The notes below the pieces were generated by a model, which saw nothing but the letters and a program-made list of their open reading frames with translations, was not told the origin of the DNA and did not search any database. Shown piece by piece: positions 29,039-63,362 of a stretch of 64,000 nucleotides of DNA (the first letter of the stretch is position 1; each line of letters begins with the position of its first letter). A program made the translations under genes and the position numbers. The stretch covers positions 1-64,000 of the forward strand of contig JAZQOV010000006.1 in assembly GCA_045628045.1 (NCBI GenBank), written 5' to 3'. This DNA is from Bacilli bacterium (GTDB lineage Bacteria > Bacillota_I > Bacilli_A > RFN20 > CAG-826).

Positions 29039-29671
29039 TCACTTATTATTTTCTTTAATTAAAAAATCTTTTACTTCATCTAAATTTAAATTGGTTAAAA
29101 CTGGAATAAGTTTATTAATTTCATCGACTGGTTTATCCCACCATTTGAAGTTTTCTAATAAATCAATAAGTTCATCATCAAATCTTTTTCTTATAACTTT
29201 AGCAGGGTTTCCGCCAACAATTGTGTATGGTTCAACATCTTTAGTTACTACTGAGCACGCTCCAATAATTGCGCCATCGCCAATATGAACCCCTGGAAGA
29301 ATTGTAACTTTTTCACCGATCCAAACATCATTTCCAACAACAGTATCGCCTTTATAAGGGCAATCCTTATCTGCTGGACGCTTTGCGTCCCATCCTGGAA
29401 TAGTGAAAAATGGATAAGTAGAAACAGCATTTAATTGGTGATTGCATTCATTCATCATAAATTCAACTCCAAATGCGATTTGAACAAACTTTCCAATAAT
29501 AAGTTTATCTTTACTCCACGGATAAAAATGAGTCACGTGAGATTCAAAATCTTGATCTGCAAAATATGAGAAATCTCCAACAATAATATTTGGGTTTTTA
29601 ATTGTTGGTTTTATGTATGTTTGTTTGTCATATCCTGGTATAGGAAATACTAGGTTTGGATTTGGTTTCAT
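29039..29671 (-). CDS. Vat/CatB-family hexapeptide O-acetyltransferase (streptogramin A acetyltransferase-like)
   Basis: Motifs [29 protein letters not shown]...STYPF, GNDVWIG and WWD. Confidence 0.85.
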
Positions 29672-29791
29672 GTTTATATGATAACATTTTTATTACAAAT
29701 AAACACCCATTCAGATATCTTAATGTCAATCAGGCCAGCCTAATTAAGGAAACTGCTTATTTGCTTATGTTCAACATATTAAATTTTAAAC

Positions 29792-29875
29792 GGTTACATT
29801 ATGTAACCACTTCAATAAACCATTAAACGGTGACAATTTGTCACCAATTGAATCAGTTGGTTACTTTTTGTAACC
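29792..29875. repeat. Three GGTKAC-N5-GTMACC palindromes
   Basis: GGTTACATTATGTAACC (29792), GGTGACAATTTGTCACC (29829) and GGTTACTTTTTGTAACC (29859). Confidence 0.85.
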
Positions 29876-29899
29876 ATCTCAATATATAAAAAAACAGGC

Positions 29900-29951
29900 T
29901 TGTATCAAACCTGTTGTTTACATCTGGGTTTGTGAACCAATTTTGATACAA
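29900..29951. repeat. Putative serine-recombinase att site A
   Basis: TATCAA(29903)-N16-TG(29925)-N16-TTGATA(29943); perfect 10-bp terminal inverted repeat. Confidence 0.75.
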
Positions 29952-30062
29952 AAACTCAAATTGACTCAATTCACGCAATTAAATTTTAGCACATTTTTTA
30001 TACTTTGTGATTTTGCACCTTCCTTTTTAAAATAAAGTTTATTTGATAGTCACAAAAAATTG

Positions 30063-30674
30063 TTAGACAAGCTTTGCTTCAAAATCAACTCGACAATCTA
30101 AAACAAATGACAAAACAGCAAATATTAAAGCAATTGCAGTTATTATCAAAAATGAGATGAAAAGATATCTTTTAATTTTGAATCTAAATAACGACAAAAC
30201 CCCTAACACTATTGATAAAGAAACAAGAGGGATTGCAGCGTATATTAATCCATAACAATGCAGATTAACTATACTTCTAAATCCATATTCAACATGTGAA
30301 GTAGGGTAGCAGATTGTTTCGCCAGTTGGTTCATAATAAGAACAATTATTGCTATGCCAATTAACAACATTTCTCAAAGGCACATAATACATCGGAACGA
30401 AAAATAATATTAAAGTAGTTGCTAAAATTGAGATCAACACAATAGTGAAAACGTAATTGATTCTCTCCTTTTTTATATCTTTGTCATCTCTTAAATCTTT
30501 GATGTCTACTCCGAAGTAGAGTGCTAAAGCTTTAAGAGTATCTTCACTCGGTTTTCCGCCACCATTTTCGTATTTAGCAATTGCGCTTCTAGAAACGTGA
30601 ACAGCGTCCGCTAAGGCCTCTTGAGAAAGGCCCTCTTCAATTCTAAGTTTTTTAAGTTTATCTTTGAACTCCAT
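30063..30674 (-). CDS. XRE-family HTH regulator with TM helices (cassette cargo)
   Basis: LSQEALADAVHVSRSAIAKYENG followed by 3 TMs; start refined to MEFKDK. Confidence 0.85.
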   Translation of the reverse strand: MEFKDKLKKLRIEEGLSQEALADAVHVSRSAIAKYENGGGKPSEDTLKALALYFGVDIKDLRDDKDIKKERINYVFTIVLISILATTLILFFVPMYYVPLRNVVNWHSNNCSYYEPTGETICYPTSHVEYGFRSIVNLHCYGLIYAAIPLVSLSIVLGVLSLFRFKIKRYLFISFLIITAIALIFAVLSFVLDCRVDFEAKLV

Positions 30675-30975
30675 AATTCGACCAACTATATTGTAACTGA
30701 TTTTCATAAAAATAATTGTTACTTATTGTTACTTCGGTTAAAGTCATACAATATTGTCTTATAAAAATTCTATTCATCTTTTATATAATCCATTATTAAT
30801 AAACTGAAACAAGTTGATATGACTTGATACGCGATTAATTTGATTATTTTAGAATATATTTAAAACCTCATAATTTTTTGCCTTTATAAATAGCTCAAGC
30901 ATTCCGAAATGTTAAAAATATAATAAAAAACACCCATTTTTAGGGCATTTTCTATGAATTCCACCTTTGATTCAT

Positions 30976-31023
30976 TGTATCAAAGTATGTCTTCTAATCT
31001 GGTGCCTCCACGCAGAATCGAAC
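30976..31023. repeat. Hybrid att site T overlapping the tRNA-Thr 3' end
   Basis: TATCAA(30978)-N16-TG(31000, the CA of CCA)-N16-TCGAAC (tRNA T-loop). Confidence 0.7.
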
Positions 31024-31073
31024 TACGGATTGATCCTTACCATGGATCCGTTATACCATTTAACTATGGAGGC
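31000..31073 (-). tRNA. tRNA-Thr(GGT), CCA encoded
   Basis: Acceptor stem GCCTCCA/TGGAGGC, anticodon arm GATCC-ATGGTAA-GGATC, T-loop TTCGATT. Confidence 0.93.
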
Positions 31074-31103: not shown

Positions 31104-32399
31104 TTATTCAACAAATTCTCCAAATAAATCATAAATATAAGCATTAGTAATTTTTACTTTAACAATATCGCCAATTTTGTGTTCTTTATTAGAAACAAAC
31201 GAAATCTTTCCATCGATATCATCTGGAGCATTCCAATACGAACGAAGTCCATAGACCTTATTTGTTTTGTTGTATTCCACCACAATTCCTTCCATAACTT
31301 TACCAATTCTAGCCTTGTTATTTTGGTAAGAAATTTTCTTTTGAACATCCATAATTTTACCAAGTCTAGCCTTCTTAAGTGATTCAGGAATTTGATTCTT
31401 GTAATCGTAAGCTTTTGTGCCATCTTCTCTTGAATATGCAAAAGCTCCCATATGATCAAATTTATTCTTTTTTGTAAAGGAAACAAGATTCACAAAATCA
31501 TCATCACTTTCACCTGGAAAACCTAGTATGTAGGTTGTTCTTAATATTGCGTGAGGTATTTTTGTTTTGATTTCATCGATCAAATTTTGGTAAGTCTCGT
31601 TTGTGCCACGTCTTAACATTCCTTTTAAAACTGCGTCACTTGAGTGTTGGAAAGGAATGTCAAAATAAGGTGCGATTCTTGGATTTTCTTTAATTAAATC
31701 AATAAGTTCGCTTGTGATTTCATCTGGGTAAAGATAAAGCAAACGAATCGAATAAAATTCTTTAATTTTTAAGAGTTCTTTTAATAAATCGACGATTGTC
31801 TTTTTATCTTTAAAATCACTTCCGTATCTTGTTGTGTCTTGAGAAATAAGCACCAATTCCTTAATGTCGTTTTCGGCTAATGATTTAGCTTCTTTTAAAA
31901 CGTCTTCAAAAGGTCTAGATCTAAAAGAACCTCTAATTAAAGGAATTGCACAATAGGCACAACAATTATTGCATCCTTCGCTTACGCGAAGATAAGCCAT
32001 ATAACTTGGTGTAGAAAGCATTCTTACAAAAGGATTAAGCTCCATTACTTTTACTTTTTTGTCAAATAAAGACTCAATCTTTTCAGAAAAATGAGAATAT
32101 TCTCTAATTGGAATCCATAAACTTACTTCTGGAATGGATGCTTTAAGTTCATCTAGGTAACGTTCGACAAGGCAACCAGTTACAACAACTTTTTTGCCTG
32201 TTTTGCAAACATGTAAAATGTTAGCAATTGATTCTTCTTTACTTGCTTCAATAAATCCACAAGTATTTACAATAACTACATCACTATCTTCAATTGTATT
32301 TACAATCTCAAACTTTGAATTTGCAAGTGCACCTAAAATAATCTCGCTATCAACGAGGTTTTTGCTACACCCTAAAGAAATAAGTCCGACTTTTATCAT
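31104..32399 (-). CDS. rimO: Ribosomal protein uS12 methylthiotransferase
   Basis: Motifs SLGCSKNLVDSE, NTCGFI and CNNCCAYCAIP; C-terminal TRAM domain with APDDIDG. Confidence 0.93.
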   Translation of the reverse strand: MIKVGLISLGCSKNLVDSEIILGALANSKFEIVNTIEDSDVVIVNTCGFIEASKEESIANILHVCKTGKKVVVTGCLVERYLDELKASIPEVSLWIPIREYSHFSEKIESLFDKKVKVMELNPFVRMLSTPSYMAYLRVSEGCNNCCAYCAIPLIRGSFRSRPFEDVLKEAKSLAENDIKELVLISQDTTRYGSDFKDKKTIVDLLKELLKIKEFYSIRLLYLYPDEITSELIDLIKENPRIAPYFDIPFQHSSDAVLKGMLRRGTNETYQNLIDEIKTKIPHAILRTTYILGFPGESDDDFVNLVSFTKKNKFDHMGAFAYSREDGTKAYDYKNQIPESLKKARLGKIMDVQKKISYQNNKARIGKVMEGIVVEYNKTNKVYGLRSYWNAPDDIDGKISFVSNKEHKIGDIVKVKITNAYIYDLFGEFVE

Positions 32400-32432
32400 A
32401 TAAATAATAAGGGCCTCTATGAGGCCCATTAA

Positions 32433-34731: not shown

Positions 34732-37700
34732 TTAATGTGCTTTTTTATTTTTTGCCTTTTTATCAAGCTCTTTAATTTCTTCGCGATATTTTGCCATTTC
34801 CTCAGAGTTTGCTAAGATCCAGTGACCCTTTGTAATTTCTTGAAGGGTTGGCTTTTCTTTAGAATAATCATGAACTTTATTTGGTTCATAAACAATTCTT
34901 TTACGTGTTTTCTCTGTTAATGGATCTGGTTTTGGAATAGCAGAAAGAAGTGCTTTTGCGTATGGATGGAGTGGATGCTTAAAGAGTTCTTCACTTGAAG
35001 CAAGTTCCACCATTTCTCCAAAATACATAACTGCAATTCTATCGCAGAAATATTTAACGACTGAGAGGTCGTGAGCAATAAACATAATTGTTAAGCCCAT
35101 TTCTTCTTTTAAGTCATTAAGAAGATTGATAATTTGAGCTCTAATTGAGACGTCAAGAGCAGAAATTGGTTCGTCACAAATTAAGAATGAAGGATTCATA
35201 ACAAGTGCACGAGCAATGCCAATACGTTGTCTTTGTCCACCTGAGAACTCATGTGGATAACGAGAAGCGAATTCTGGAATAAGTCCGACTTTTGTTAAGA
35301 CATCTGCAACCTTTTTGCTATTAGCAAACTTATTGCGTTGACCTTGAATCTTTAAACCTTCTTGAATAATGTCTTCAACAGTCATTCTTGGATCAAGAGA
35401 ATCAACAGGGTCTTGGAAAATCATTTGCATCTTGCTAAGAAGCTTCTTGTCAACATGTCTATTATCATAGTTAATTTGTTTAATAATAGCTTTTTGAGTT
35501 TTCTTGGTTTCACTAATATGATTTTCGATTTCTTTAATTTGTTTTTCGTAACTTGATCTAATTTGATTTTGTCTTTTTGATGATTCTGAAACATATTTCT
35601 TGTTATAAACACCTTTGGTGACAAGATAATCAATAAACTTAATTATAAAGTAAACTGCTGCACCAATAGCAAGATAAGCAACAGGAACGTACTCTGCAAG
35701 GAATGCAAAACAGAGTAATTCAAATAAATAACCGAGAATGCTAGATAAAACAATCTTTGCACGTTTTGCCTTAATAAATGGTGAATTATTTAAAACATCT
35801 TTGTTTCCGGTTCTTAAAAGCATAAGGATTCTAAGTGGAATCATGCAAATAACAACAAATACAATAATTCTTAAAGCTAAAATAATATCGATAATTTCTA
35901 ATGTGCCTAAGATAATTGCACCTAAACATGTTAAGATGCAAATAACTGTAAAAATAAATGCTGCGAGGAAATTTTGTCCTAAATATCTAAAATAATCTCT
36001 TAAATAACGGCCATGTTTCTTAGCATGGGTTTTCTCAATCTTATTTAATTTAGCTTCGCTAACCTTGATTTGTTTACGAAGTGATTTCCTATCTAAACGA
36101 AGAGAGCGTTTAAGTTCTCTATATTTTCTATTACGCATTTTCTTATTCTTAATTTCGTCATATTTAAGAACTTCGCCTTCGAAATTAATCTTTAAATTTG
36201 CGTAGTCTTCACGTTTATTAATAAGTGTGCTATGTGCAAAGAAAAGATTTTTATCTTCTTTTCTATTTTTTGCTACATAATGAGTTTCAAATTTCTTAAT
36301 TTTTCTAAGAGCTTTAACGTTGTTATGCCCTTTAATTTTGGCTTCTTTTCTAAGATATTTTGCTTCTTTTATTTGTTTATCATAGAAAGTAGCAATTCTG
36401 TTTTTGAAATTCTTAAATTCAACATCAGCAAATTTCTTGTTATATCTAATTTGAACGATAATAAAATCAAGAATTAAATAAGCAAAATAAATTCCTGCGG
36501 ATATTGAAATCCATTTTTGAGAAAGTGCTTTGCAAATAAATGCAATTCCGCAAATCTCAAAAGCAAGTGATAAAACCACGAATAAAGCAACTTTAATAGG
36601 TCTTACAATAATAAACCCAGAATTGCTTTCTCCTTCAGCTTTACCAACTCTAATGAGAAGTAGTACTCCAAAAGGAATAAGGCAAATAATTGCAAATACA
36701 ATATAAGTTAATAATGAATTAATTGATATTAAGTTAGATAAGCTAAGAAGCAATAAGCCAACACCAATTAGAATTGCACCAATAATTGCAATAATTGATT
36801 CAAAACTATATTTTTTAACGAATTTTGAATAATCTCTTAAGAATGAATGGCTCTTTCTTAGGCGAACCTTTTCAATTGATTTAATACGTTTTTCAATTTC
36901 AGCAATTGCTTCAGAAATCGAGATTTCGCTTAAAGCGAATGCATGATTAATTTCATCTCTTTTAACTGAACGTTGTTTTCTGTTCTTAATAAACTTTAAA
37001 GTACGTAATTCAGCTTGATAATTAATATCTAAATTTGCGTATTCTTCATAGCTACTTGCAAGAGACTTTTGAAGTTCTGATAAAACTTTAATGTCTTGTT
37101 TATTAGCTGCAACATAACGAAGTTGTTCTTTCTTTACAAATTTAAGAGCTTTAATTCGATTATGTTGTTTGATTCTAGCTTCTTTAATGGCGAATTTAAC
37201 ATCGCTAATTTGATTTTTATATGAAATTTTTGTTTCTTTAATTCGTTTTGCTAAAGGAGCGTCAAGATGTTTTCTCCTATAAGCTGCTCTAATAAAGAAG
37301 AAATCAATAATGTTATATAAAATATAAACACATGCTCCACAGAAGAAGTAAATTCTTGGTAAATAGCCAAGTATTACAGCAAATCCAATGAGTTCAATTA
37401 GAACTGACAGAATTGCAAAAATGGCTATTTTTATTGGTTTAATTTTGACAAATGAAACACCACTATCATCATTAGATTTATTAAGTCTAAAGATTTTAAC
37501 CATTTCAAATTGCATGATTAAAAGTAAACCAACAGTTACATATGTTAAGTAAGGATTTAGATCAACAAAATATGAAGCGCTAAGGAAAACTAATCCAAGT
37601 GCGATTAAGATTATTCCAATAATAGAAAGAGCTAATCTAAATGGATGTTTACTTCCTTGTTTAAAGTAATCCTTCAAGAAGTGATTATGTTTTCTTACAC

Positions 37701-38319
37701 GGGTCTTTTCAATTCTACGAATATTGGCTTTAGTTTCTTTAATAACTCGTTTATTTTGTTTTTTAGTTACATTGTAACTATGTTTAATCTCAGATTTCTT
37801 GTTAGCACGAAGTTCTAAGTCTTCAATTTCTCTAAGATTAAGACATGCTTCTTCATAATTTGCTTTCAAATTAGCACGTTCTTCAATCTTTTCACCTAAT
37901 GTTCTTTGGAGTTTACGAAGTGGTTCAACATCCTTTTTATTAATGGTTACATAAGTAAGTTCAGAGTTCATTTCTGATCTAAGAGCTTTAATCTTATTTT
38001 TACCTTTAATTCTTGTCCATTTAATTTCTTTTTCATTCCATCTTTTGCCTGCGCTTATACGATGTCCTTCGAAATAAACAGAACCTGATGTAATGTTGTA
38101 AAGTCTAATTAAAGAACGACCTGTTGTGGTTTTACCACAACCAGATTCACCAACAACACCAAAACATTCACCTTTTTTAATATCAAAAGATACATCGTGA
38201 ACTGCTTTTGTGGTAAGTGAATTAGAGCCATGTCCAAACTTAAAATATTGTTTCAAGTGACGGACAGAAACTTCTACATTATTGTCAACAAGTGACTTAT
38301 CAAAAGTAACCTTACGCAT
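34732..38319 (-). CDS. oppF: Oligopeptide ABC ATPase OppF with a ~840-aa triple-repeat membrane insertion
   Basis: Walker A GESGCGKTT, then the insert, then QMIFQDP, FSGGQRQR, ICDEP, H-loop and oligo_HPY. Confidence 0.88.
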   Translation of the reverse strand: MRKVTFDKSLVDNNVEVSVRHLKQYFKFGHGSNSLTTKAVHDVSFDIKKGECFGVVGESGCGKTTTGRSLIRLYNITSGSVYFEGHRISAGKRWNEKEIKWTRIKGKNKIKALRSEMNSELTYVTINKKDVEPLRKLQRTLGEKIEERANLKANYEEACLNLREIEDLELRANKKSEIKHSYNVTKKQNKRVIKETKANIRRIEKTRVRKHNHFLKDYFKQGSKHPFRLALSIIGIILIALGLVFLSASYFVDLNPYLTYVTVGLLLIMQFEMVKIFRLNKSNDDSGVSFVKIKPIKIAIFAILSVLIELIGFAVILGYLPRIYFFCGACVYILYNIIDFFFIRAAYRRKHLDAPLAKRIKETKISYKNQISDVKFAIKEARIKQHNRIKALKFVKKEQLRYVAANKQDIKVLSELQKSLASSYEEYANLDINYQAELRTLKFIKNRKQRSVKRDEINHAFALSEISISEAIAEIEKRIKSIEKVRLRKSHSFLRDYSKFVKKYSFESIIAIIGAILIGVGLLLLSLSNLISINSLLTYIVFAIICLIPFGVLLLIRVGKAEGESNSGFIIVRPIKVALFVVLSLAFEICGIAFICKALSQKWISISAGIYFAYLILDFIIVQIRYNKKFADVEFKNFKNRIATFYDKQIKEAKYLRKEAKIKGHNNVKALRKIKKFETHYVAKNRKEDKNLFFAHSTLINKREDYANLKINFEGEVLKYDEIKNKKMRNRKYRELKRSLRLDRKSLRKQIKVSEAKLNKIEKTHAKKHGRYLRDYFRYLGQNFLAAFIFTVICILTCLGAIILGTLEIIDIILALRIIVFVVICMIPLRILMLLRTGNKDVLNNSPFIKAKRAKIVLSSILGYLFELLCFAFLAEYVPVAYLAIGAAVYFIIKFIDYLVTKGVYNKKYVSESSKRQNQIRSSYEKQIKEIENHISETKKTQKAIIKQINYDNRHVDKKLLSKMQMIFQDPVDSLDPRMTVEDIIQEGLKIQGQRNKFANSKKVADVLTKVGLIPEFASRYPHEFSGGQRQRIGIARALVMNPSFLICDEPISALDVSIRAQIINLLNDLKEEMGLTIMFIAHDLSVVKYFCDRIAVMYFGEMVELASSEELFKHPLHPYAKALLSAIPKPDPLTEKTRKRIVYEPNKVHDYSKEKPTLQEITKGHWILANSEEMAKYREEIKELDKKAKNKKAH

Positions 38320-40096
38320 GTGCTTTATCTCCCTTCTTTGCTTTTAAGGAGTTTGCAATACGAGTTTTAACGATACGTGGCATTGTAACTTTTGGAGCAC
38401 GTGGATCAAGAAGCCATGTTGCTGCATAGTGAGTGTCACTAACTTTAAATAAAGGTGGTTCCTTCTTAAAGTCAATTTCCATAGCATATTTACTACGTAA
38501 AGCAAATGCATCACCCTTTGGAGGGTAAATCATATTTGGAGGAGTTCCTGGAATTGCCTCAAGTTTTTCATTTGAGTCAACATCTGGAATTGAGGAAAGA
38601 AGAGCCCAAGTGTATGGATGTCTTGGATCATAGAAAATTTCTTCTTCTGTTCCATATTCAACAATCTTGCCTGCATACATAACTGCGACTCTGTCTGCCA
38701 TGTTAGCGACAACACCTAAGTCGTGAGTAATGAAAATACAAGAAAGTTGTCTTTCTTTCTTTAAATTGTTAATAAGTTCAAGAATTTGAGCTTGAATTGT
38801 AACGTCAAGAGCTGTTGTAGGTTCATCACAGATTAAAATGTCTGGATCTGCTGTTAATGCAATAGCAATAACAATACGTTGTCTCATACCACCTGAGAAT
38901 TCAAATGGATATTGTCTATAACGTTTTTCTGGATCTTTAATGCCGACTTCTTCCATAATCTTTAAAGCTCTAGCTTTAGCTTCAGCTTTTGTGATTCTTA
39001 ATTTGCTTAAATATTCAATGCGAAGAGCTTTGCGTTCTGCTCTTAAACGTCTAAAGAAGAACTTGTGTCCACTACGTCTTACTCTTCTTGGAGCACTTCT
39101 GCGTTTGAGTTTATATCCATAATGTTCACATTTCTTGTAAATCTTTACTTCACGTTTTGCAACTTTAGTTCTTGCTTTATATTCAGCTTTGAGTTTCTTA
39201 ATAAGTGGAACATATTTTGCCTTCAAAGCATTCTTGTTGTTTTTTGAATTTCCTTGAAGCTCTGCGATTTCAGTGTCAAATTTGATGGTTAATTGCTTAA
39301 TCTTCTCTTTTGATTGCTTACTAAGCTCGGATTTTGATGCTCTTACAGCGTGCAAATTATATTTGTATGATTTAGCAAGTTGAGCAAGTTTAAGTTTTTT
39401 ATTTTTCTTTGCTTGGGCAATTGCTTTCTTTGAAGCACGTTTGTTCTTCATTTTTTCAGCTGCAGCCACTGCACTTCTAAATTCATCTTCAGCGGCAAAC
39501 TTAGATGCGCCATATTCACGTTTAAGTGAATAAGCACGACCTTCAATGTCGTTTGTCACAAAGTTTCTTGCTTGAGCGATTTGTTTTTTCTTCTCACTCT
39601 TTAAGAACTTAATGTTTTCGCTATATTTAGCAAGTCCACTTCTAAGTTCTGTTTCGGCGTTTTTGTATGCAGAAAGTTCTTTAGAAACTAAATCTTCGTA
39701 CATTTTCTTTGTGCGTGAAGCATTAATAAGCATAGCTTCAGTGATTTGTTTCCCAATACGCATGATTGGGTTAAGTGAAGAAAGTGGGTCTTGGAAAATC
39801 ATTCCAATTTTGTGACCTCTGATTCTGTGGAATTCATCCTCAGAAACTTTAGTGAGGTCTTCGCCTTCATACATAATTGAGCCTTCAACGATACGACCGT
39901 TTGAGGCTAAAATGCCCATGATTGCTTTGTTTGTAACTGATTTTCCGGATCCTGATTCACCAACAATACAAAGGGTTTCGCCCTTGTATAAATCAAATGA
40001 AACACCACGGACAGCTTGAACATAACCATGGTCAGTGGAGAAATGAATACGTAAATCTTTTACGCTTAATAATGGAGTTTTCTTTGTTGTAGCCAT
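38312..40096 (-). CDS. oppD: Oligopeptide ABC ATPase OppD with a basic coiled-coil insertion
   Basis: Motifs GESGSGKS, MIFQDP, FSGGMRQR, CDEPTT and HPYT. Confidence 0.9.
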   Translation of the reverse strand: MATTKKTPLLSVKDLRIHFSTDHGYVQAVRGVSFDLYKGETLCIVGESGSGKSVTNKAIMGILASNGRIVEGSIMYEGEDLTKVSEDEFHRIRGHKIGMIFQDPLSSLNPIMRIGKQITEAMLINASRTKKMYEDLVSKELSAYKNAETELRSGLAKYSENIKFLKSEKKKQIAQARNFVTNDIEGRAYSLKREYGASKFAAEDEFRSAVAAAEKMKNKRASKKAIAQAKKNKKLKLAQLAKSYKYNLHAVRASKSELSKQSKEKIKQLTIKFDTEIAELQGNSKNNKNALKAKYVPLIKKLKAEYKARTKVAKREVKIYKKCEHYGYKLKRRSAPRRVRRSGHKFFFRRLRAERKALRIEYLSKLRITKAEAKARALKIMEEVGIKDPEKRYRQYPFEFSGGMRQRIVIAIALTADPDILICDEPTTALDVTIQAQILELINNLKKERQLSCIFITHDLGVVANMADRVAVMYAGKIVEYGTEEEIFYDPRHPYTWALLSSIPDVDSNEKLEAIPGTPPNMIYPPKGDAFALRSKYAMEIDFKKEPPLFKVSDTHYAATWLLDPRAPKVTMPRIVKTRIANSLKAKKGDKAHA

Positions 40097-40097
40097 A

Positions 40098-42203
40098 TTA
40101 TTCACCTTCTCCTTTCAAACTTGGGTTAACAGCATCTCTTAAGCCGTTACCGAACAAGTTAAATGAAATCATAAGTAATGCGATGATAACTGATGGGAAA
40201 ATTAACAAATATGGATGGTTTGTTAACTCGATTTGGTTATCGGAAAGAATAACACCTAAAGAGGCTAAGTTTTTAAATCCTAAACCTAAATAAGAAATTG
40301 TAGCTTCGCTAAAGATAACACTTGGGACCATTAAGACTGCTGAAGTAATAATTGTACCCATGGCGTTTGGAAGAATGTGGCGAGCAATAAGTCGACCATT
40401 CGAAGCACCAAGTGTTCTAGAGGCCAAAACGTACTCTCGACCCCTAAATCTATAGAACTGAGTACGCGTTGTTGCAGCTGTACCAATCCAACCTGTTAAA
40501 CAAAGCGCTAAAGCGAATGTAAAGAAGTTGGATCCAAGTTTAATAATTGTAAGTGTCATAACGACAATCCATGGAACACCAGCAAGAATATCTGTGAAAC
40601 GTTCCATAATAAGGTCGACTGCACCGCCAAAGTAACCACAGACAGAACCCCAGATCAAACCAAATAAGAAACAAATTACTGTTGTGGCAAGGCCAAGGAG
40701 AAGAGAAGTTCTAAGTCCTTCAAAAACATAAATAAACATGTCTCTTCCTGTAACATCTGTTCCTAAAATGAATTTTGGCATCTTATCAAGGCCATATTTC
40801 ATCTTGTAGTAATAAACTTCGACTTTAATATGATCAACAAGTCCTGTTGTTTGGTCTAATACGACATCATCTTTTGTAAAGACTTCAACAAATGGACATT
40901 TTTCTTTATTTAAAATCTCACATTTGCATGAAGTTATTTCATAAAGTCCGGTTTCATCGTTAATTTCAGTCTTAACACTGTAATTGATGTATCCTTTGTT
41001 TTTAAGTTCTTTAAGTTGGGTGTTATACATATCAACAACACGTGCACCCAATACAGCTTCGTATGTGTCATAAGTGAATGAACAAAGAACTGCTCTTATT
41101 AAATAAGAGGTATCTCTAGAATAAGAGGTATTGGAGATATTTTTCCAATAACCTGGTTCTGTTGATAAACGTTTTGCTTCATCATTTCCATCTTTAAATG
41201 AATAAGCATTAAATACTTCGTTTGCGTCATCGTCATAAGTATCGCACTTAATGTTGATTGATTTAATCAAAGTGCAAGCTTGTTTAACTTCTGGATTATT
41301 TTTAACTCTAATTTCAAGTGTTGGGTTATCAATTTTTGAATCTAAATTAAGAGCTTTTCCGTTTTCGTCTTTCATTTCTAAGAACATGTCACGGATATTA
41401 ATTGAAGATTCTTGTCCACCAACATCATGAGACATTGCCCATGAAGTTAATTGGATTTCATAATCAACAAGATTTTGGCTGAATGAGAAGAATAAAGCAT
41501 TCTCGGCATCTTTATAACCTGTTGGGAATTCTTTTGTCTTTTCATCGCTTGCTTCAAGCTTAATAGTGTCATAAGTAACAAAGTTATCTATGATAAAATC
41601 ACCATCAAGGTCGAATTCTTTAAGTTTTGCTTCTGTAGCATAGCTAACGTATTCAACGTCTGCTGGCATTGAGAAATAACCGAATTGGACAAAACCTTCT
41701 CTGAAATATTTATTTGCAGAGGTAACGTATTGTTCTTCACCAATAACTAAATCAGAAACAGCGTTTTTGTTGTATCGATCGTAATCTGGTCCCCATTCAT
41801 CTTTGTTTGAACTTGAAGTATCAACAGCAATGTCCACCATTTTCTTAGTTCCATCCCAGAAACCAGTGCCAGAGTTAAATAATTTTGGCTCTAAGTAATA
41901 AAGTTCTGGATGTGATGAATTTGTTTCGTGAACTTCGCTTGTTTTGCAAACGACTGGAACAAGAACAGACATTACAAGTAAAATGCCTAAAATAACGGTT
42001 GCAACAACACTTGATTTGTTTTTTGCAAATCTCCTTAAGCAGTCTTTAAAGAATGTGGTTGGCTTAGTCTCAAATTTTTGATCATGAATTTTAGTGTTCG
42101 CTTGAACAAGCTTAAAATCAGACTTAGAAATGCTTGGATCTAAGGCTTCGACTGGGAGATTTTTTAAATTGAATTCATTTTTAGCGTTTTTCATATTATG
42201 CAT
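40098..42203 (-). CDS. oppC: Oligopeptide ABC permease OppC with a large extracytoplasmic insertion
   Basis: OppC_N region (RFAKNKSSV), LGTDVTGRD, EAA loop and GNGLRDA. Confidence 0.88.
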   Translation of the reverse strand: MHNMKNAKNEFNLKNLPVEALDPSISKSDFKLVQANTKIHDQKFETKPTTFFKDCLRRFAKNKSSVVATVILGILLVMSVLVPVVCKTSEVHETNSSHPELYYLEPKLFNSGTGFWDGTKKMVDIAVDTSSSNKDEWGPDYDRYNKNAVSDLVIGEEQYVTSANKYFREGFVQFGYFSMPADVEYVSYATEAKLKEFDLDGDFIIDNFVTYDTIKLEASDEKTKEFPTGYKDAENALFFSFSQNLVDYEIQLTSWAMSHDVGGQESSINIRDMFLEMKDENGKALNLDSKIDNPTLEIRVKNNPEVKQACTLIKSINIKCDTYDDDANEVFNAYSFKDGNDEAKRLSTEPGYWKNISNTSYSRDTSYLIRAVLCSFTYDTYEAVLGARVVDMYNTQLKELKNKGYINYSVKTEINDETGLYEITSCKCEILNKEKCPFVEVFTKDDVVLDQTTGLVDHIKVEVYYYKMKYGLDKMPKFILGTDVTGRDMFIYVFEGLRTSLLLGLATTVICFLFGLIWGSVCGYFGGAVDLIMERFTDILAGVPWIVVMTLTIIKLGSNFFTFALALCLTGWIGTAATTRTQFYRFRGREYVLASRTLGASNGRLIARHILPNAMGTIITSAVLMVPSVIFSEATISYLGLGFKNLASLGVILSDNQIELTNHPYLLIFPSVIIALLMISFNLFGNGLRDAVNPSLKGEGE

Positions 42204-57363: not shown

Positions 57364-57496
57364 GCTCTAGCCTTCACGACACGAGCATACAAAAAACAAA
57401 TTTATTTGTCATAGAAATTAACTAAGTGGTCTTTTTTGCTAACTATTCGGTAGAAAAAAGCACTGATTTTTGCATCAATGCTGTTGTTTACTAATG
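57303..57496. repeat. ~190-bp direct repeat of 63145-63338
   Basis: Near-identical by eye with scattered substitutions; similarity ends at the central TG of sites B and E. Confidence 0.9.
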
Positions 57497-57520
57497 CCTC
57501 CGTTTACCCATTTTGATACA
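57471..57520. repeat. Putative att site B
   Basis: CATCAA(57473)-N16-TG(57495)-N16-TTGATA(57513). Confidence 0.75.
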
Positions 57521-57605
57521 CTGCATACCCTAGCCTAGTTTTTGCATACCCTAGGTGTTTTTTGCATACCCCTATTTCTGAACGATAAATAAAAATTTAT
57601 CAGTA

Positions 57606-58100
57606 TTACAACCTCTTTATCTCATTGGCAATCGCAGCCACAGCTTTTCCTTTAGTATCAATTTTAATAGTGTCCAATGCTTGATACATAGGTATTCTCG
57701 CTATGCTTCTCTCAATTACATCTTCAGAACGAATACCTTTTTCTACATCCGCGGACAATCTTTCACGCAGAGTATTTTCATCGGCTGTCAGAGAGATGCA
57801 TTTCACCTCACAGTTCTGTATATCCAACTTCTTAAGTATGGAATCGATAATTCTCTGCTCGTGCATCACCCAACAAAAAATAATATTCTCGTATGCATAA
57901 CATTTCAGAAAATTATTGAGTAAGTAACAAATATTATTCGTCACCATTGCTTTTGTTTCATCGGTTACTTGGAATGGATCGGCATCCCAACACCAATCTC
58001 CATCAAGAAATACACTATTCGGTAAATCCTGTTTGAGCTGTTGGCACACAGTTGTTTTTCCAACTCCCATAGTGCCACCAATCATATATAAAGTTTTCAT
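57606..58100 (-). CDS. AAA/P-loop nucleotide kinase-like protein
   Basis: Motifs GGTMGVGKTT and LDGDWCW. Confidence 0.85.
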   Translation of the reverse strand: MKTLYMIGGTMGVGKTTVCQQLKQDLPNSVFLDGDWCWDADPFQVTDETKAMVTNNICYLLNNFLKCYAYENIIFCWVMHEQRIIDSILKKLDIQNCEVKCISLTADENTLRERLSADVEKGIRSEDVIERSIARIPMYQALDTIKIDTKGKAVAAIANEIKRL

Positions 58101-58155
58101 ATCTGTTCCTCACAAATCCCGATTTATCGATATCCCGACAAATGCGAATTTCTCT

Positions 58156-58623
58156 TTATCTATGCTTTTCTAAGCGTAGAAGACCTTCTTCATCCGGTAC
58201 ACTAATTCCGTTTTTATATGTGTATCCCATTTTTATATAAAAGGGAGTTGCAGTGATCGAGGCAGGTATTTCAATTCTCTTCGCGCGAAGAAAATATTCG
58301 TCTTTTTCCAAAGTATCTATGATCTTTCTTCCGATTCCTTGCCCGTGATACTCTGGTAAAACAAAGATAGTGAATAAACTACTTTCGTCAACTTTACCCC
58401 AGTATGGTCCTATTGCACCGCAGCCCACAATTTTATCCTCATCGCATACTACATAAAAATGAGTCCATTTTGCGCGTTCCAAGATGTCTTTCGGCTGTAA
58501 TTTTTGAACATCATTTTCGATATATTCCCTCGAATAATCTTTGGTGTTGACTTCTCTGAGCGTCCTAACAATCAAAGCTGATACATTTACTGCATCTTCA
58601 GGCTCGATTCTTCTGATAATCAT
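58156..58623 (-). CDS. GNAT acetyltransferase
   Basis: Motifs FVLPEYHGQGIG and FYIKMGY. Confidence 0.88.
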   Translation of the reverse strand: MIIRRIEPEDAVNVSALIVRTLREVNTKDYSREYIENDVQKLQPKDILERAKWTHFYVVCDEDKIVGCGAIGPYWGKVDESSLFTIFVLPEYHGQGIGRKIIDTLEKDEYFLRAKRIEIPASITATPFYIKMGYTYKNGISVPDEEGLLRLEKHR

Positions 58624-58898
58624 TGCATCGCATCCTCATGAATCTCGATTTCTCTCCGTTTATTATACCGGCGATGCAGGGACATTTCTATTGATAAAAA
58701 CAGCTGGGACACCCCAACTTCCACAACTTACTCCTCGTGAGATGTGTCTTTCCAAAGGATACTTACGTATTTCTAAAGGCTACCTAGCTGAAGCAAGGAT
58801 TCTATCAAAAGAGCTGACTAATTATTCCTTATTTATTAGATTTATAAGAAAAAATGCCCATTTCTGAGCATTTTTGCGGTTTTTCGCATATTCCACTT

Positions 58899-58946
58899 TG
58901 TATCAAAGCATGTATACGATTATGTCTTGCTGCAACGAAGTTAATA
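58899..58946. repeat. Putative att site C
   Basis: TATCAA(58901)-N16-TG(58923)-N16-TTAATA(58941). Confidence 0.75.
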
Positions 58947-59129
58947 GTTTTTAACCAAGTGCAACGAAGTTAATGGATCGAACACAACGAAGTTAATATG
59001 TGTTTTCAATCAAATGGGCCACTTCAACAATGGTTCAAGTAGCAAGTATGAGACTATTGATGGATACGAAGTAGATAAATATAACTACCAAAATCACACA
59101 GTTAATAAGATAAAAACATTTAAAAAGAT

Positions 59130-59807
59130 TTAATCATTAACAAAGAATATCGTGTTCTTATCAAATGCCCCATAGGCAAATCCGAAATTAAGGAAGCCGG
59201 GCATTTTTTCATATGCTTTAAATGAAGTTCTATTTATAAATTCATCTACACCAATATTTTCAATATATCCATATGGGTTATAGATGGTGACGTTATCGTT
59301 AGAAATATCAAGGCTGGTTACTACTGAATAATGAAGCGTCCATTCATTTTCATATTTGGCGGCCCATTCCACGATAACAGGGTTCTGATCTTTTAAAGAT
59401 TTGAATATTTCTTTTAAGAGAATATCGTGTTTTAGATATTCGTGTTTATCAAATGATTTTCCTTCAATAAAATTATTGATTTCTTCTAAGAAACCTTTCG
59501 ATGTTGAGGTAGTAATTCTGCCTTTATTCTTTAGACTTAGTTCGTCTTCAGTGATCTTTTGTCCATAGTAGGAGGATACCATTTCAATTGAGGCGTAGCC
59601 ACAAGAGATATGTTGTTCAACAAGCTCTATTCCGCTTACTTCTACCTTTTGAGAATAGATGCTGCTATCTTTTAAATAGGAGTAGTCTGATTTTAAAGAT
59701 GATGTTCTAATTCCTAGAATTGAAAAAGGAATCGCAAGCGAAAGAGAAATTGCTCCCAAAAAAACACTAGAAATAATAATTGCTAATGTTTTCTTTTTAA
59801 GCTTCAT
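59130..59807 (-). CDS. Membrane-anchored C39-like cysteine peptidase
   Basis: N-terminal TM; motifs QHISCG, LHYSVV and YNPYG. Confidence 0.7.
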   Translation of the reverse strand: MKLKKKTLAIIISSVFLGAISLSLAIPFSILGIRTSSLKSDYSYLKDSSIYSQKVEVSGIELVEQHISCGYASIEMVSSYYGQKITEDELSLKNKGRITTSTSKGFLEEINNFIEGKSFDKHEYLKHDILLKEIFKSLKDQNPVIVEWAAKYENEWTLHYSVVTSLDISNDNVTIYNPYGYIENIGVDEFINRTSFKAYEKMPGFLNFGFAYGAFDKNTIFFVND

Positions 59808-60003
59808 ATTTATACTCCAAAATATCGGCAGGTTGACAATTCAATTCTTTGCACAAAGCATTTAAAGTGGAAAATCGAATTGCTGAAATTTTACCTGTTT
59901 TTATGTTGGACAAATTCGCGTCCGTCAAGCCGATTTTTACTGCAAGATCTTTCAGTTTTACACCGCGCTCTTTCATTACTTTATCTAATTTTAATACTAT
60001 CAT
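59797..60003 (-). CDS. YozG-like XRE/Cro regulator
   Basis: NLSNIKTGKISAIRFSTLNALC..L.CQPADIL. Confidence 0.88.
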   Translation of the reverse strand: MIVLKLDKVMKERGVKLKDLAVKIGLTDANLSNIKTGKISAIRFSTLNALCKELNCQPADILEYKYEA

Positions 60004-60491
60004 AATGTTTCGTCGTCATTCTTTTGTAATTCTTTGCCGTATTTGAAAAACAAACCAAAAATAAACATAACAATACCCGATATAACTCCACCAAGAGAAA
60101 TTGGGAAGATCAATTCGGTTGTAGGGTAGATAATACGTAAAACTGTTGAGCCGACAAGCGCAGGAACAACCGAAATAAGTATTACGAATATAGCAATCTT
60201 TTTCAAATAGTGACTTACTTTTTCTCCAAACGGGGCTTTTTCTTGTTCTATGCTTTTGAAAAGGCTTTCTAGATTCCAAAGCAACCCGATACATATAAAC
60301 GCATATAAAGCAAGCGTACCAAATATGCTTGCAGTTTCCGCAACGGAAAGTTCTTTAATTGCATTTGTACATGACAGCGCAATCGTCAAAGCGATAAAAA
60401 CCAAACACGCTGCACAACTTACAAAATAAAGAACTTTCGTTACTATGTAACACACTTTTGCAGTTTTGATAATTTTGTTTTTTGTTTCCAT
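60000..60491 (-). CDS. DUF2975-like membrane protein
   Basis: 4 TMs; C-terminal FKYGKELQKNDDETL; adjacent to a YozG-like HTH gene. Confidence 0.75.
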   Translation of the reverse strand: METKNKIIKTAKVCYIVTKVLYFVSCAACLVFIALTIALSCTNAIKELSVAETASIFGTLALYAFICIGLLWNLESLFKSIEQEKAPFGEKVSHYLKKIAIFVILISVVPALVGSTVLRIIYPTTELIFPISLGGVISGIVMFIFGLFFKYGKELQKNDDETL

Positions 60492-60535
60492 AATGAAATT
60501 TCCTTTGTTTTAATTACCAATATATTAGCGCAAAA

Positions 60536-60571
60536 TTATCGTTTATCAATATTTTTTATCGTTTATCAATA
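60536..60571 (-). promoter_or_regulatory. Tandem operator-like repeat upstream of the DUF2975-HTH-C39 operon
   Basis: TTATCGTTTATCAATA occurs twice with a 20-nt period. Confidence 0.55.
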
Positions 60572-60707
60572 ATTTTTTGAAAGCAAATAATGCAAAACTT
60601 TAAGAAATTATCATTCTTATGGCATAACGCACTATGTTTTATAAAAGAAACAATAAACTAAATATGCCATAAATAATGAAAAAAGCCTTGATTTTAGTGT
60701 TTTCAAC

Positions 60708-60755
60708 TGTATCAAAGCTTTAGTCTACATTTGTCTTTGTGCAAATAAGTTGATA
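60708..60755. repeat. Putative att site D
   Basis: TATCAA(60710)-N16-TG(60732)-N16-TTGATA(60750). Confidence 0.75.
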
Positions 60756-60794
60756 TATAAATTTGAGGTTCTTGACGCTCATTATTATACATCT

Positions 60795-61226
60795 TTATTC
60801 TTTATTCATTTCATTAAGCTTATTGTTCATTTTCTTTACTGTTTTCTTTGAAACAAGATAGATAATTATCCAAATAATGATAAACGCTCCAATAAATGCT
60901 GAAGAATAAATGAGAATCACAATTGGTTTAAGCGGAATCCAATTGTTAATCAAATATCCAGCTGTATATACAGTGTAAAGTGATACACCTTGAAAAAACG
61001 CAGACTTAAATGGCGACCATTTTTCAATTTGAGGGAATACACTACTACCAGCATGAACAAACGCAATCACGTATGTTGTAATAATCGCAGAACAAATCTG
61101 ATATACAGATAATTCCACTTTTACTCCTGACCACTCTAGAATTAAATAAATAATTGCAAGAATAATTGGACCAAAGCCCGCAAAGATTAATCCGCGGAGC
61201 AAATAACTTTTTACATATTTGTTCAT
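60795..61226 (-). CDS. DUF3021-like membrane protein (LytTR-system inhibitor type)
   Basis: 4 TMs; WS...NNWIP motifs; directly downstream of lytTR. Confidence 0.75.
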   Translation of the reverse strand: MNKYVKSYLLRGLIFAGFGPIILAIIYLILEWSGVKVELSVYQICSAIITTYVIAFVHAGSSVFPQIEKWSPFKSAFFQGVSLYTVYTAGYLINNWIPLKPIVILIYSSAFIGAFIIIWIIIYLVSKKTVKKMNNKLNEMNKE

Positions 61227-61227
61227 G

Positions 61228-61662
61228 TTATAAGCCAATCCTTTCTTTCACGTGTTTTAATTCTCTACGAGAAATATAATCTTTGTATCCATTTTTGAAA
61301 ATAACCAAAGTGGCGCCACCAATAGAGGTTTTGAATTCTTTCATTTGTTTAATGTTTGCTAAACAAGATTGATTTAGCTTAACGAAATATTCATTAAAAG
61401 GCATATCCTCAAGTTGATATAGTCTTTCTTTAAGTTGATATTTCTTTTCACCGATTAAAGCGAAGATTTTTCCGCCTTCCACAATGAAACAAGTAACTTC
61501 AATTGGATCAATCAAGATAGTAGTATCTTCATAGGTGCCAGTTAAAGAAACACCTGTTGAAGAAACTAGTTTTTCAATCTCTTCCACTAAAGAAGTTTTT
61601 TCCTTCGCGTAGATGACTACTTTTTCTTCTTGTTTATCGTCGATAAATGTATAACATTTCAT
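61228..61662 (-). CDS. LytTR-domain transcriptional regulator (no receiver domain)
   Basis: Motifs LYQLE, FVKLNQSCLAN and KNG..DYISRR. Confidence 0.88.
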   Translation of the reverse strand: MKCYTFIDDKQEEKVVIYAKEKTSLVEEIEKLVSSTGVSLTGTYEDTTILIDPIEVTCFIVEGGKIFALIGEKKYQLKERLYQLEDMPFNEYFVKLNQSCLANIKQMKEFKTSIGGATLVIFKNGYKDYISRRELKHVKERIGL

Positions 61663-61676
61663 GTTTTAATTATATA

Positions 61677-62489
61677 TTAGCTGATATCTTTTTTCATTTT
61701 ATTTGTGAAAACAAACAATGACAAACTAACAAGCACTATCATATAGGCAAGCATTAAGACTAAATATAAGGTTCCACGATCACTGAAATTATAAATAACA
61801 GGATTAAATGTGGTTGCTTCATCAATTGAAGTCTGAGTTGCGCCTGTAATACATCTACCTAAATAAGTAGATTCATAGAAAGGCAAGAAACCACAAGCTT
61901 TTTCAAAATTTCCCATTGTGTCTAATGGAATCCACGCACCACCCAAGATGCCAGATGCAGAAATGAATATTGATGATACTGCAGGTGAGCTTTTGTCATT
62001 CAAAATTGTTCCAAATATCATGCCTAATGAGATGCAAATAATCATCATTGGAAACATTTCAATAAACAACAAGCATGCATTGCCAAAACCAACAAAACCT
62101 CTGCCACTTATTAATCCAGATATATACCCAGAAACAATACAAATAACGGTTTGACATAATCCAACAATAATAAAAGGAATTAAATATCCCAATATGAATT
62201 GATATGCTTTAAGAGGCGAAGAAAATAGTCTCTTCAAGAAAGCGCTCTCTCTATCTTTTGATATGAGCAAAGAAGACATCAACATTAATAAGGAATAGCT
62301 AAACATAACAACCCCTGGAATTAAGCTCTTTTCATAGAAGATAGGGCTTTGTCCATCAGGTATATAATGTAAAATTACATTAAACATCAAAATCATAAAG
62401 ATAGGAAACCCAACACAAAAGATATATAAAAGAGGATCTCTAATCATTTCAGTTAGGTTTCTTTTTGTAAACAATATTGCCTTTTTCAT
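61677..62489 (-). CDS. ABC-2 type exporter permease
   Basis: RDP motif, 6 TMs, and RLFSSPL. Confidence 0.85.
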   Translation of the reverse strand: MKKAILFTKRNLTEMIRDPLLYIFCVGFPIFMILMFNVILHYIPDGQSPIFYEKSLIPGVVMFSYSLLMLMSSLLISKDRESAFLKRLFSSPLKAYQFILGYLIPFIIVGLCQTVICIVSGYISGLISGRGFVGFGNACLLFIEMFPMMIICISLGMIFGTILNDKSSPAVSSIFISASGILGGAWIPLDTMGNFEKACGFLPFYESTYLGRCITGATQTSIDEATTFNPVIYNFSDRGTLYLVLMLAYMIVLVSLSLFVFTNKMKKDIS

Positions 62490-63205
62490 TATTTGATATC
62501 TCCTCCTACAATCTTCACAAACGCTTCTTCAAATGAGTTTTCTTTTGTGTGTTCTTTTATTTCCTCTACAGTGCCTATATCTAATAGATGACCACTACTT
62601 AAAATCGCTACTCTATCACATAAAGCTTCAATTTCTTCTAAATAGTGAGAAGTTAATACAATCGTCGTCTTTCCTTTCAAGGATTTAATAACTTCCCATA
62701 ATTCTCTTCTGATGAGAACATCGAGTCCTAAAGTAGGCTCATCAAGGAAAAGAATCTTTGGTTTAGAAATAAGCGCTACTGCGATTGACAATCTTCTTTG
62801 CCAACCGCCTGATAAAGTCTTTACTCTTTTGTTCAGAATTTCTTTTAAAGAAAAAGAATCCACTATCTTATTAAAATATTCTTCATCGTGACTCCCATAT
62901 AGGCTCTCAAAGAAGAACAAGTTCTCTTTCACAGTCAAATTCATTGCCACAGATATTTCTTGCGGAGAAATGTCTATAATCTTCTTTATTTCATCTATTT
63001 CGCTTAATGGATGACCATCAACCACTGCATCTCCACCACTTTTCTTAGCTAATCCAGATAAAATTCTAATCAATGTTGTTTTTCCGGCACCATTAACGCC
63101 TAGTAATCCAAATAACTCACCTTCTTTTATAGAAAGAGATACTTCATCTAACGCTTTTAATGCTTTATAGTTCTTTGATAATTTTTCAACTCTAATAATT
63201 TCCAT
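62489..63205 (-). CDS. ABC exporter ATP-binding protein
   Basis: Motifs GVNGAGKTT, LSGGWQRR, LDEPTLG and TSH. Confidence 0.92.
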   Translation of the reverse strand: MEIIRVEKLSKNYKALKALDEVSLSIKEGELFGLLGVNGAGKTTLIRILSGLAKKSGGDAVVDGHPLSEIDEIKKIIDISPQEISVAMNLTVKENLFFFESLYGSHDEEYFNKIVDSFSLKEILNKRVKTLSGGWQRRLSIAVALISKPKILFLDEPTLGLDVLIRRELWEVIKSLKGKTTIVLTSHYLEEIEALCDRVAILSSGHLLDIGTVEEIKEHTKENSFEEAFVKIVGGDIK

Positions 63206-63264
63206 GCTCTAGCCTCCACGACACGAGCATACAAAAAAACAAATTCATTTGTCGCAGAAATTAA

Positions 63265-63294
63265 CTAAGTGGCCTTTTTTGCTCACTATTCGGT
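63265..63294 (-). promoter_or_regulatory. LytTR-type 9-12-9 direct repeat operator (second copy at 57422-57451)
   Basis: Minus strand ACCGAATAG-N12-GCCACTTAG upstream of the ABC-lytTR-DUF3021 operon. Confidence 0.65.
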
Positions 63295-63312
63295 AGAAAA
63301 AAGCACTGATTT

Positions 63313-63360
63313 TGTATCAATGCTATTGTTTCCTTATGTGTTTGTGCAACGATGTTGATA
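63313..63360. repeat. Putative att site E
   Basis: TATCAA(63315)-N16-TG(63337)-N16-TTGATA(63355). Confidence 0.75.
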
Positions 63361-63362
63361 TA

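Follow-up and report, generated by a model that had tools for sequence, protein, structure and literature searches.

A 1075-bp single-gene cassette at the CCA end of a tRNA-Thr gene, bounded by sites that resemble the ends of prophage Φ1207.3

The closest described relatives of the system reported here are prophages of the Φ1207.3 type. Φ1207.3 integrates at a GA dinucleotide in comEC and encodes two tandem resolvases (PMC4260502, excerpt). Analysis of the ends of the Φ1207.3 record revealed TATCAA followed by 17 nt at one end and 17 nt followed by TTGATA at the other, which together give TATCAA-N16-GA-N16-TTGATA. A second copy of GTATCAAATTGAGAA was observed at the start of the first Φ1207.3 recombinase gene (L272, 2761) and is possibly an autoregulatory binding site. 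SCCmec and ECC elements also encode a large serine recombinase (LSR) pair, CcrA/CcrB, and have inverted-repeat sites of ~50 bp, stacked attR sites and pseudo-SCC units without a recombinase (PMC6222049 and PMC10581047, excerpts). Tycheposons carry their cargo behind tRNA and tmRNA genes, with the newest cargo nearest the tRNA (10.1101/2020.12.28.424599, excerpt). The multi-targeting LSRs of Durrant et al. use many chromosomal targets via a fixed central dinucleotide (PMC10083194, excerpt); in the available main text of that paper, supplements aside, the term tRNA occurs 0 times. Streptococcal integrative and conjugative elements use serine integrases at protein genes and tyrosine integrases at tRNA sites (PMC4701971 and PMC10484663, excerpts). 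Docking at tRNAs through a CA core was not described in the available portions of PMC3485107, PMC12884075, PMC13751307 and PMC10083194, and a full-text literature search, outside which most subscription papers and supplements lay, found no description of CA-core docking at multiple tRNAs.

The DNA analysed here, referred to as the window, is a stretch of 64,000 nucleotides from a Bacilli bacterium (GCA_045628045.1, contig JAZQOV010000006.1). The original prediction placed a mobile cassette holding a single XRE-type membrane regulator gene between two sites, A and B, at the CCA end of tRNA-Thr, and recomputation reproduced the coordinates of both sites, the 1075-bp spacing of their centres and the single gene (Table 1). 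Read on the forward strand, site B consisted of TATCAA (30978-30983), 16 nt, TG (31000-31001), 16 nt and TCGAAC (31018-31023), and site A of TATCAA (29903), 16 nt, TG (29925-29926), 16 nt and TTGATA (29943). The TG of site B was the terminal CA of the encoded CCA of tRNA-Thr(GGT), which ARAGORN located on the minus strand. Only one ORF of at least 70 amino acids was found between the two sites, and the putative protein contained an HTH_3 domain at residues 18-72 and three hydrophobic stretches. In the 1.07-Mb assembly, symmetric TATCAA-Nn-(CA/TG)-Nn-TTGATA sites numbered three at n = 16, whereas none occurred at any of the 18 other values of n from 8 to 26. By chance, TTGATA was expected at +16 behind any of the 44 tRNAs 0.04 times. 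A further hexamer pair at C12:19206 had an AT centre, lay inside a prophage ORF and was attributed to chance.

Table 1. Features of the tRNA-Thr locus and of the second group of sites in the window.
Feature	Position	Strand	Basis or remark
tRNA-Thr(GGT), encoded CCA	31000..31073	-	ARAGORN; its 3' half serves as the docking site's host arm
Site B (attL-like): T-loop GTTCGA, 16 nt, CA core 31001-31000, 16 nt, TTGATACA	30976..31023	-	
1075-bp cassette without a recombinase gene (CA core counted once)	29925..30999	-	Metagenome alleles, L254 ends
Terminator-like hairpin at cassette start	30923..30955	-	Pattern scan
Cargo gene, XRE-type HTH and three predicted membrane segments, 214 aa	30063..30707	-	
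Site A (attR-like): TATCAA, 16 nt, CA core 29926-29925, 16 nt, TTGATA	29901..29950	-	
Terminator-like hairpin that overlaps site A (3' arm)	29893..29915	-	Pattern scan
Vat-like hexapeptide acetyltransferase, outside the cassette	29039..29671	-	NCBIfam Vat_ABCDEFH
rimO-like radical SAM gene, conserved upstream anchor of the locus	31104..32429	-	
Four further sites with this geometry (first hexamers 57473, 58901, 60710, 63315)	57470..63362	-	

The sequence ATCTGG, which the original prediction gave as a core shared by both sites, was indeed present twice (29922 and 30997), but it is not a conserved core. Other copies of the ends, in the viral contig locus L254, agreed only over CA, so a 6-bp core was rejected and the identity of the two hexamers is incidental. 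The hairpin at the cassette start is a putative terminator that likely ends the tRNA transcript in the filled allele; the hairpin at site A, also a putative terminator, would stand directly behind the tRNA in the empty allele. The Vat-like protein scored 255.8 bits, which is below the Vat_ABCDEFH cut-off of 300. Three palindromic boxes (GGTTAC/GGTGAC-N5-GTAACC/GTCACC) were noted between site A and the Vat-like gene (29786-29883), and copies of GTAAC/GTTAC lay near the start of the XRE gene (about 30692-30740); these are possibly operators of XRE-type repressors.

The same tRNA-Thr was found behind rimO in 25 of the 29 rimO loci of relatives. Four of the 25 loci ended within 9 nt, which left 21 informative. 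Empty alleles had been predicted to diverge right after the CCA, and the sequence of the window was abandoned within 0-1 nt of the CCA in 21/21 informative relatives; five of them had TTGATA at +16 behind differing spacers. The XRE gene gave no BLASTN match in the fetched tRNA-Thr loci of relatives. An XRE gene in all relatives, or junctions away from the CA, had been named as grounds for abandoning the claim, and neither was seen. A 5' piece of the XRE gene (91% identity) was present in G010, 12 kb below the same tRNA, and a protein search of 401 genomes returned N-terminal matches only, in 13 others. The closest relative, G028, encoded a different one-gene unit at this tRNA; the unit was 1038 bp in length, contained a Fic domain and extended from the CA of the tRNA to a TATTAA-N16-CA end. 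In G033 the tRNA was followed by ~5 kb of other cargo, a site whose arm showed 92% identity over 38 nt to the 3' arm of site A, and then the same Vat-like gene (86% DNA identity). The tRNA-Thr of one further locus (L013, from G002) ended in CCC with TTGATA one base early, which is consistent with the loss of one base at the crossover or with an assembly error.

Alignment of the cassette with L254 showed 84% identity over the first 477 nt and 97% over the last 78 nt. The interior between these ends differed and was about 1.9 kb in length, the 5' part of the XRE gene being common to both. The left flank in L254 was another tRNA-like 3' end and not the tRNA-Thr of the window, and the right flank departed from the window at the first base after the distal CA. 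The 3' arm of site B was also present as an identical copy at two places in L254. As a separate observation, tRNA 3' halves without a full tRNA served as left arms inside the arrays of L254 (6600-6880 and 12390-12650) and L312 (5500-5670). These arrays also included units of ~130-250 bp with no ORF of listed size between the two sites.

Contigs of four gut metagenome runs (X1, X2, X3 and X11) were compared with the region. Contigs of X2 represented the filled allele with the cassette. An exact skip of 1075 bp was found in X3 (study P2, two contigs) and X11 (study P5); the sides of these joints measured 25 and 29 letters respectively at 90% likeness, and at that likeness joints with a side below 30 frequently derive from other organisms. 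In X1 (study P1), an 11.5-kb contig contained both flanks with 7221 other letters between them (side 211). A circle joint was not among the matches listed from the metagenome contigs, which drop rare forms. Filled, empty (with the short sides given above) and 7.2-kb swapped alleles thus agreed with the prediction of a mobile cassette. The boundaries of the cassette lie at CA on both ends, and empty and swapped alleles exist.

Complete elements of the same design were found in relatives. A 48.3-kb prophage in G269 started at the CCA of tRNA-Arg(TCT) with an N16-TTGATA arm and ended in TATCAA-N16-CA, directly after an LSR pair. The DNA beyond this distal CA directly followed the CCA in G201 and G424 (89% identity over 54-56 nt). 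Besides G269, the tRNA was located in 16 genomes of the genus; these two were the empty alleles among them, three others of the 16 had the same filled arm and the rest differed. A crossover at the terminal CA, as had been proposed, was borne out by these empty alleles together with the divergence of the L254 ends and the 1075-bp skip. The proposal that the tRNA 3' end is not duplicated was likewise upheld, as no repeated tRNA fragment was found at site A or at the G269 prophage's distal end. G128 contained a 12.2-kb element of the G269 plan at tRNA-Ala and an element with a broken pair at tRNA-Gly. Additionally, units of 1.0-2.4 kb were stacked between sites in G229 and G128. In a gut phage record with an assignment to Anaeroplasmataceae, a TATTAA-N16-CA end lay directly after the pair. 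Pair-bearing elements start at a tRNA CCA and end in the same arm directly after the pair.

When viral contigs were scanned for two-armed sites with a CA core, at least 120 loci were returned, of which 80 had long flanks and 40 had 300-bp flanks. Among the 80, an LSR was encoded within 4 kb of 26/45 intergenic site matches compared to 1/35 of those inside an ORF. An LSR match was present in 28/120 viral loci and a tyrosine recombinase match in 1/120, 40 of the 120 having 300-bp flanks only. Most of the viral LSRs formed tandem pairs, with proteins of about 430 and 530 amino acids, pointing toward the site and ending 220-370 bp from it. All eight pair proteins tested contained Resolvase, Recombinase and zinc-ribbon domains and a YARVS motif, and none of the eight contained DUF4368. 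The pair proteins showed 47-52% identity to the Φ1207.3 pair, and the G269 protein was 47% identical to Φ1207.3 orf57. With one query, the pair family was found in 36 of the 401 genomes of the order. An arm with CA was present within 1.5 kb downstream in 12 of 30 fetched LSR loci. In a quick tree of 70 LSRs, sequences with CA, TG and GA cores interleaved. In three loci (L138, L164 and L165), two different LSR pairs converged from either side on a single site, as though the CA core joined two phages end to end.

LSRs of a separate type were observed directly below tRNA-His or tRNA-Thr (L056, L057, L064 and L053), pointing at the tRNA and without a TTGATA arm. The LSRs at these tRNAs in G007, G033, G046 and G025 lacked the arm and were rejected as the enzyme; those included in the quick tree fell on long separate branches. 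Because these LSRs are without the TTGATA arm, the tRNA-His and tRNA-Thr loci are used by other LSR systems too. Analysis of 20 stretches of 15-20 kb below tRNA junctions revealed an LSR in one. Two tyrosine recombinases in such stretches lay inside type I restriction loci and were discounted as integrases.

Taken together, the evidence points to a tandem LSR pair of the Φ1207.3 type as the enzyme, one that is missing from this genome: no match to PF07508 or PF00239 was obtained for an LSR or resolvase in the 96%-complete assembly. As the genome is without an LSR and only one tRNA of 44 is docked, we infer that the cassette was moved by an LSR pair acting in trans. We consider it probable (roughly 0.8) that the 1075-bp segment is an inserted cassette and that a Φ1207.3-type pair from another element put it there. 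A circular cassette closed at a two-armed site would recombine with the tRNA 3' half, the CA and the downstream DNA through a 2-bp CA overlap. The tRNA would stay whole, no fragment of it would be duplicated and the incoming arm would supply a new terminator. Since the new junction would again be a target, cassettes would stack nearest the tRNA, and those without recombinase genes would move only when a pair-bearing phage or island visits.

The tRNA junction pattern, with spacers of 12-20 nt, gave 875 matches in 329 of the 401 genomes of the order. Among the matches listed, all from one family, the spacer was 16 in 109/150 with nine spacers allowed. Across the phylum, junctions with a spacer of 16 were present in 55 of 251 genomes and were patchy by family (12/14 and 17/22 compared to 0/51 and 3/62). 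The original prediction had suggested a look for TTGATA 16 nt behind other CCA-encoding tRNAs; in the genome itself, only 1/44 tRNAs had it. A GTDB-wide scan returned at least 121 loci, mostly in Clostridia and Bacilli, the few matches outside the phylum being possibly due to chance; 99 distinct full tRNAs of 36 anticodon types were represented. The least biased search fixed one 16-letter arm and left the core and left flank free. In 331 genomes this gave 107 matches, of which 75 were behind a tRNA or tmRNA end, 24 behind an element-end arm and eight elsewhere (hand count), with CA exactly 16 nt before TTGATA in 101. These counts are descriptive and not statistics, since kin are not independent, and it was arms and not enzymes that were matched across tRNAs. 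One arm sequence is found behind many different tRNAs and tmRNA, in agreement with the prediction that many tRNAs could serve as docking sites.

A broader reading, to which we give a chance not far from even and which we put forward tentatively, is that one LSR pair reads what almost every tRNA gene has, namely the CCA end and, 17-19 bases upstream of it, the invariant C and A of the T-loop. Any tRNA or tmRNA gene with an encoded CCA would then offer a docking site without harm to the host. Phages passing through would redistribute a common stock of one-gene cassettes that carry no recombinase among tRNA-anchored arrays of gut Bacillota, in an integron-like manner with serine chemistry, and duplication-based island finders would miss them. 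It is also possible, if on balance doubtful, that each pair of this family, acting on the same sites, prefers one or a few tRNAs; the breadth would then belong to the family and shared arms would reflect arm exchange or cross-mobilisation. The diversity of the pairs (41-59% identity to the query) and the presence of each complete element at one tRNA only are in keeping with such a preference, as is the tRNA specificity of tycheposon integrases (10.1101/2020.12.28.424599, excerpt). Against it, tRNAs of differing anticodon type had identical 22-nt arms, in one genome tRNA-Gly and tRNA-Ser among them, and tRNA-Lys and tRNA-His were followed by similar cargo genes behind arms that were identical or differed by one base. 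The arm of the window itself was found behind tRNA-Thr here and behind another tRNA-like end in L254.

The distance from T-loop to CCA is fixed in tRNAs, and any crossover at the CCA puts the T-loop at the position of the outer hexamer. The 16-nt spacing is forced by this geometry and is thus no proof that the T-loop is read. GTTCRA matches TATCAA at 3-4 of six letters, GTTCAA doing so at four. GTTCAA made up 40 of the 109 spacer-16 junctions among the matches listed (hand count), 41/121 in the GTDB scan and 59/120 in the viral scan, compared to a baseline of 16 of the 41 GTTCRA tRNAs in this genome (hand count). In two of the three counts, T-loops with more likeness to TATCAA were not favoured, and there was no consistent preference overall. 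Non-canonical loops were also used, with GTCCGA or GTGCGA in five matches of the fixed-arm search, and in a related S. suis prophage that targets comEC, the host arm had TAGTTT at the outer-hexamer position and thus no such likeness. In the attB of classical LSRs the outer motif is shifted inward. On the tRNA side, the enzyme may read the T-loop C and A, the CCA, or one half-site in a relaxed manner.

The cassette could instead be immobile now, as what is left, in fixed form, of a larger element with an LSR whose interior was lost; the empty allele would then be ancestral and not a product of excision. The lack of an LSR or resolvase match in the genome, the lack of a circle joint among the matches listed and the broken pair at tRNA-Gly in G128 would fit such a history. 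We regard it as unlikely, since the two ends are undamaged and are found again around another interior (about 1.9 kb in L254 compared to 1075 bp in the window), intact sites flank many one-gene units of 1.0-2.4 kb on either side, and filled, empty and swapped alleles coexist among close strains. That the junctions are made by a tyrosine recombinase (XerC/D or the island integrase on contig C6) or by a transposase is very improbable. The genome does encode three tyrosine recombinases and no serine recombinase, but the ends share 2 bp only with arms spaced over 46 bp, the geometry is that of Φ1207.3 and, in the viral loci, short flanks included, LSR matches exceeded tyrosine recombinase matches by 28 to one; the element starts also lack an initial TG. 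Recurrent terminator pieces with a coincidental spacing, as suggested by the hexamer often lying in the stem or loop of a terminator-like hairpin, are scarcely credible given the excess of 16-nt spacers, the exact CA spacing in 101/107 arms with the core free and the 24 arms behind an element end, and are refuted by the empty allele of the G269 prophage.

The four additional sites in the window belonged to a second array, situated below tRNA-Arg(TCT) (contig C6, 66560-66636), just outside the window. The cargo between its sites (56000-66636) included GNAT, SnoaL, AAA, C39 peptidase, LytTR/DUF3021 and ABC genes. A 170-bp near-duplicate preceded the sites at 57473 and 63315, and several site arms were present in two or three copies (CAAC-N3-GTTG boxes). 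Half-sites with this geometry were also present below tRNA-Met(CAT) and tRNA-His(GTG) on contig C3 of G000 (93362-96098 and 136243), the last copy of each triple repeat being at hexamer-N16-CA. Elsewhere in the window (34732-40105), two oligopeptide ABC ATPase genes contained long internal insertions, the first with a threefold 837-bp repeat.

These sites give exact borders for an insertion class that is very common in uncultured gut bacteria (329/401 genomes of the order at spacers of 12-20; 55/251 of the phylum at a spacer of 16) and whose cargo included restriction-modification, Fic, acetyltransferase and transporter genes. Islander-type searches look for a duplicated tRNA fragment. As only CA is repeated here, searches based on duplication would miss such elements. 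Attachment sites are now given for the tandem recombinase family, which makes the division of labour between the two proteins directly testable. Should a single pair indeed accept the majority of tRNA ends, bacteria that encode CCA could be given DNA with a near-universal integration tool that disrupts no gene.

Comparison with known systems showed the greatest likeness to Φ1207.3, Φ10394.4 and the S. suis comEC prophages, which have two tandem LSR genes at the right end pointing outward to that end. A 2-bp crossover, a dinucleotide as direct repeat and TATCAA-N16-NN-N16-TTGATA ends are common to both; the geometry, the crossover and the linked pair of Φ1207.3 were all found here, the pair in viral contigs and relatives and not in the genome itself. 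Φ1207.3-type prophages have a GA core and split comEC, whereas the core here is CA and many tRNA and tmRNA 3' ends are left intact. Unlike these prophages, small cassettes without a recombinase also use the sites. Stacked units and units without recombinase genes are likewise features of SCC/ECC. However, the target of SCC/ECC is rlmH, where the core is GA and a TATCATAA motif lies close to the centre, whereas the junction here is at tRNA-Thr, the motif differs and there are many targets per genome. A Ccr system was rejected, as ten proteins scored 105-154 bits against the CcrB profile (cut-off 900), with 111-154 bits for pair proteins.

As in tRNA islands and tycheposons, cargo builds up behind tRNA and tmRNA genes with the newest nearest the tRNA. 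Those elements mostly use tyrosine recombinases, each tRNA having its own integrase clade, and part of the tRNA is left behind as a copy, whereas the distal ends here (site A and G269) are without a tRNA fragment and the cassette encodes no tyrosine integrase; tRNA-like fragments do occur inside some arrays (L254 and L312). In integrons, one-gene cassettes are likewise arrayed with recombination sites separating them, and new ones enter at a proximal site that is fixed. The arrays here differ in having double-armed serine-type sites, a tRNA end as the proximal site and a non-resident enzyme, with no need for IntI. The multi-targeting LSRs share the principle of one LSR type with many targets and a fixed central dinucleotide, but are described in the available text of PMC10083194 by protein-gene targets and often with DUF4368, which the pair proteins here lack. 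The system operates in the manner of the Φ1207.3 pair and bears a looser likeness to SCC/ECC, but it does not belong to the Ccr systems.
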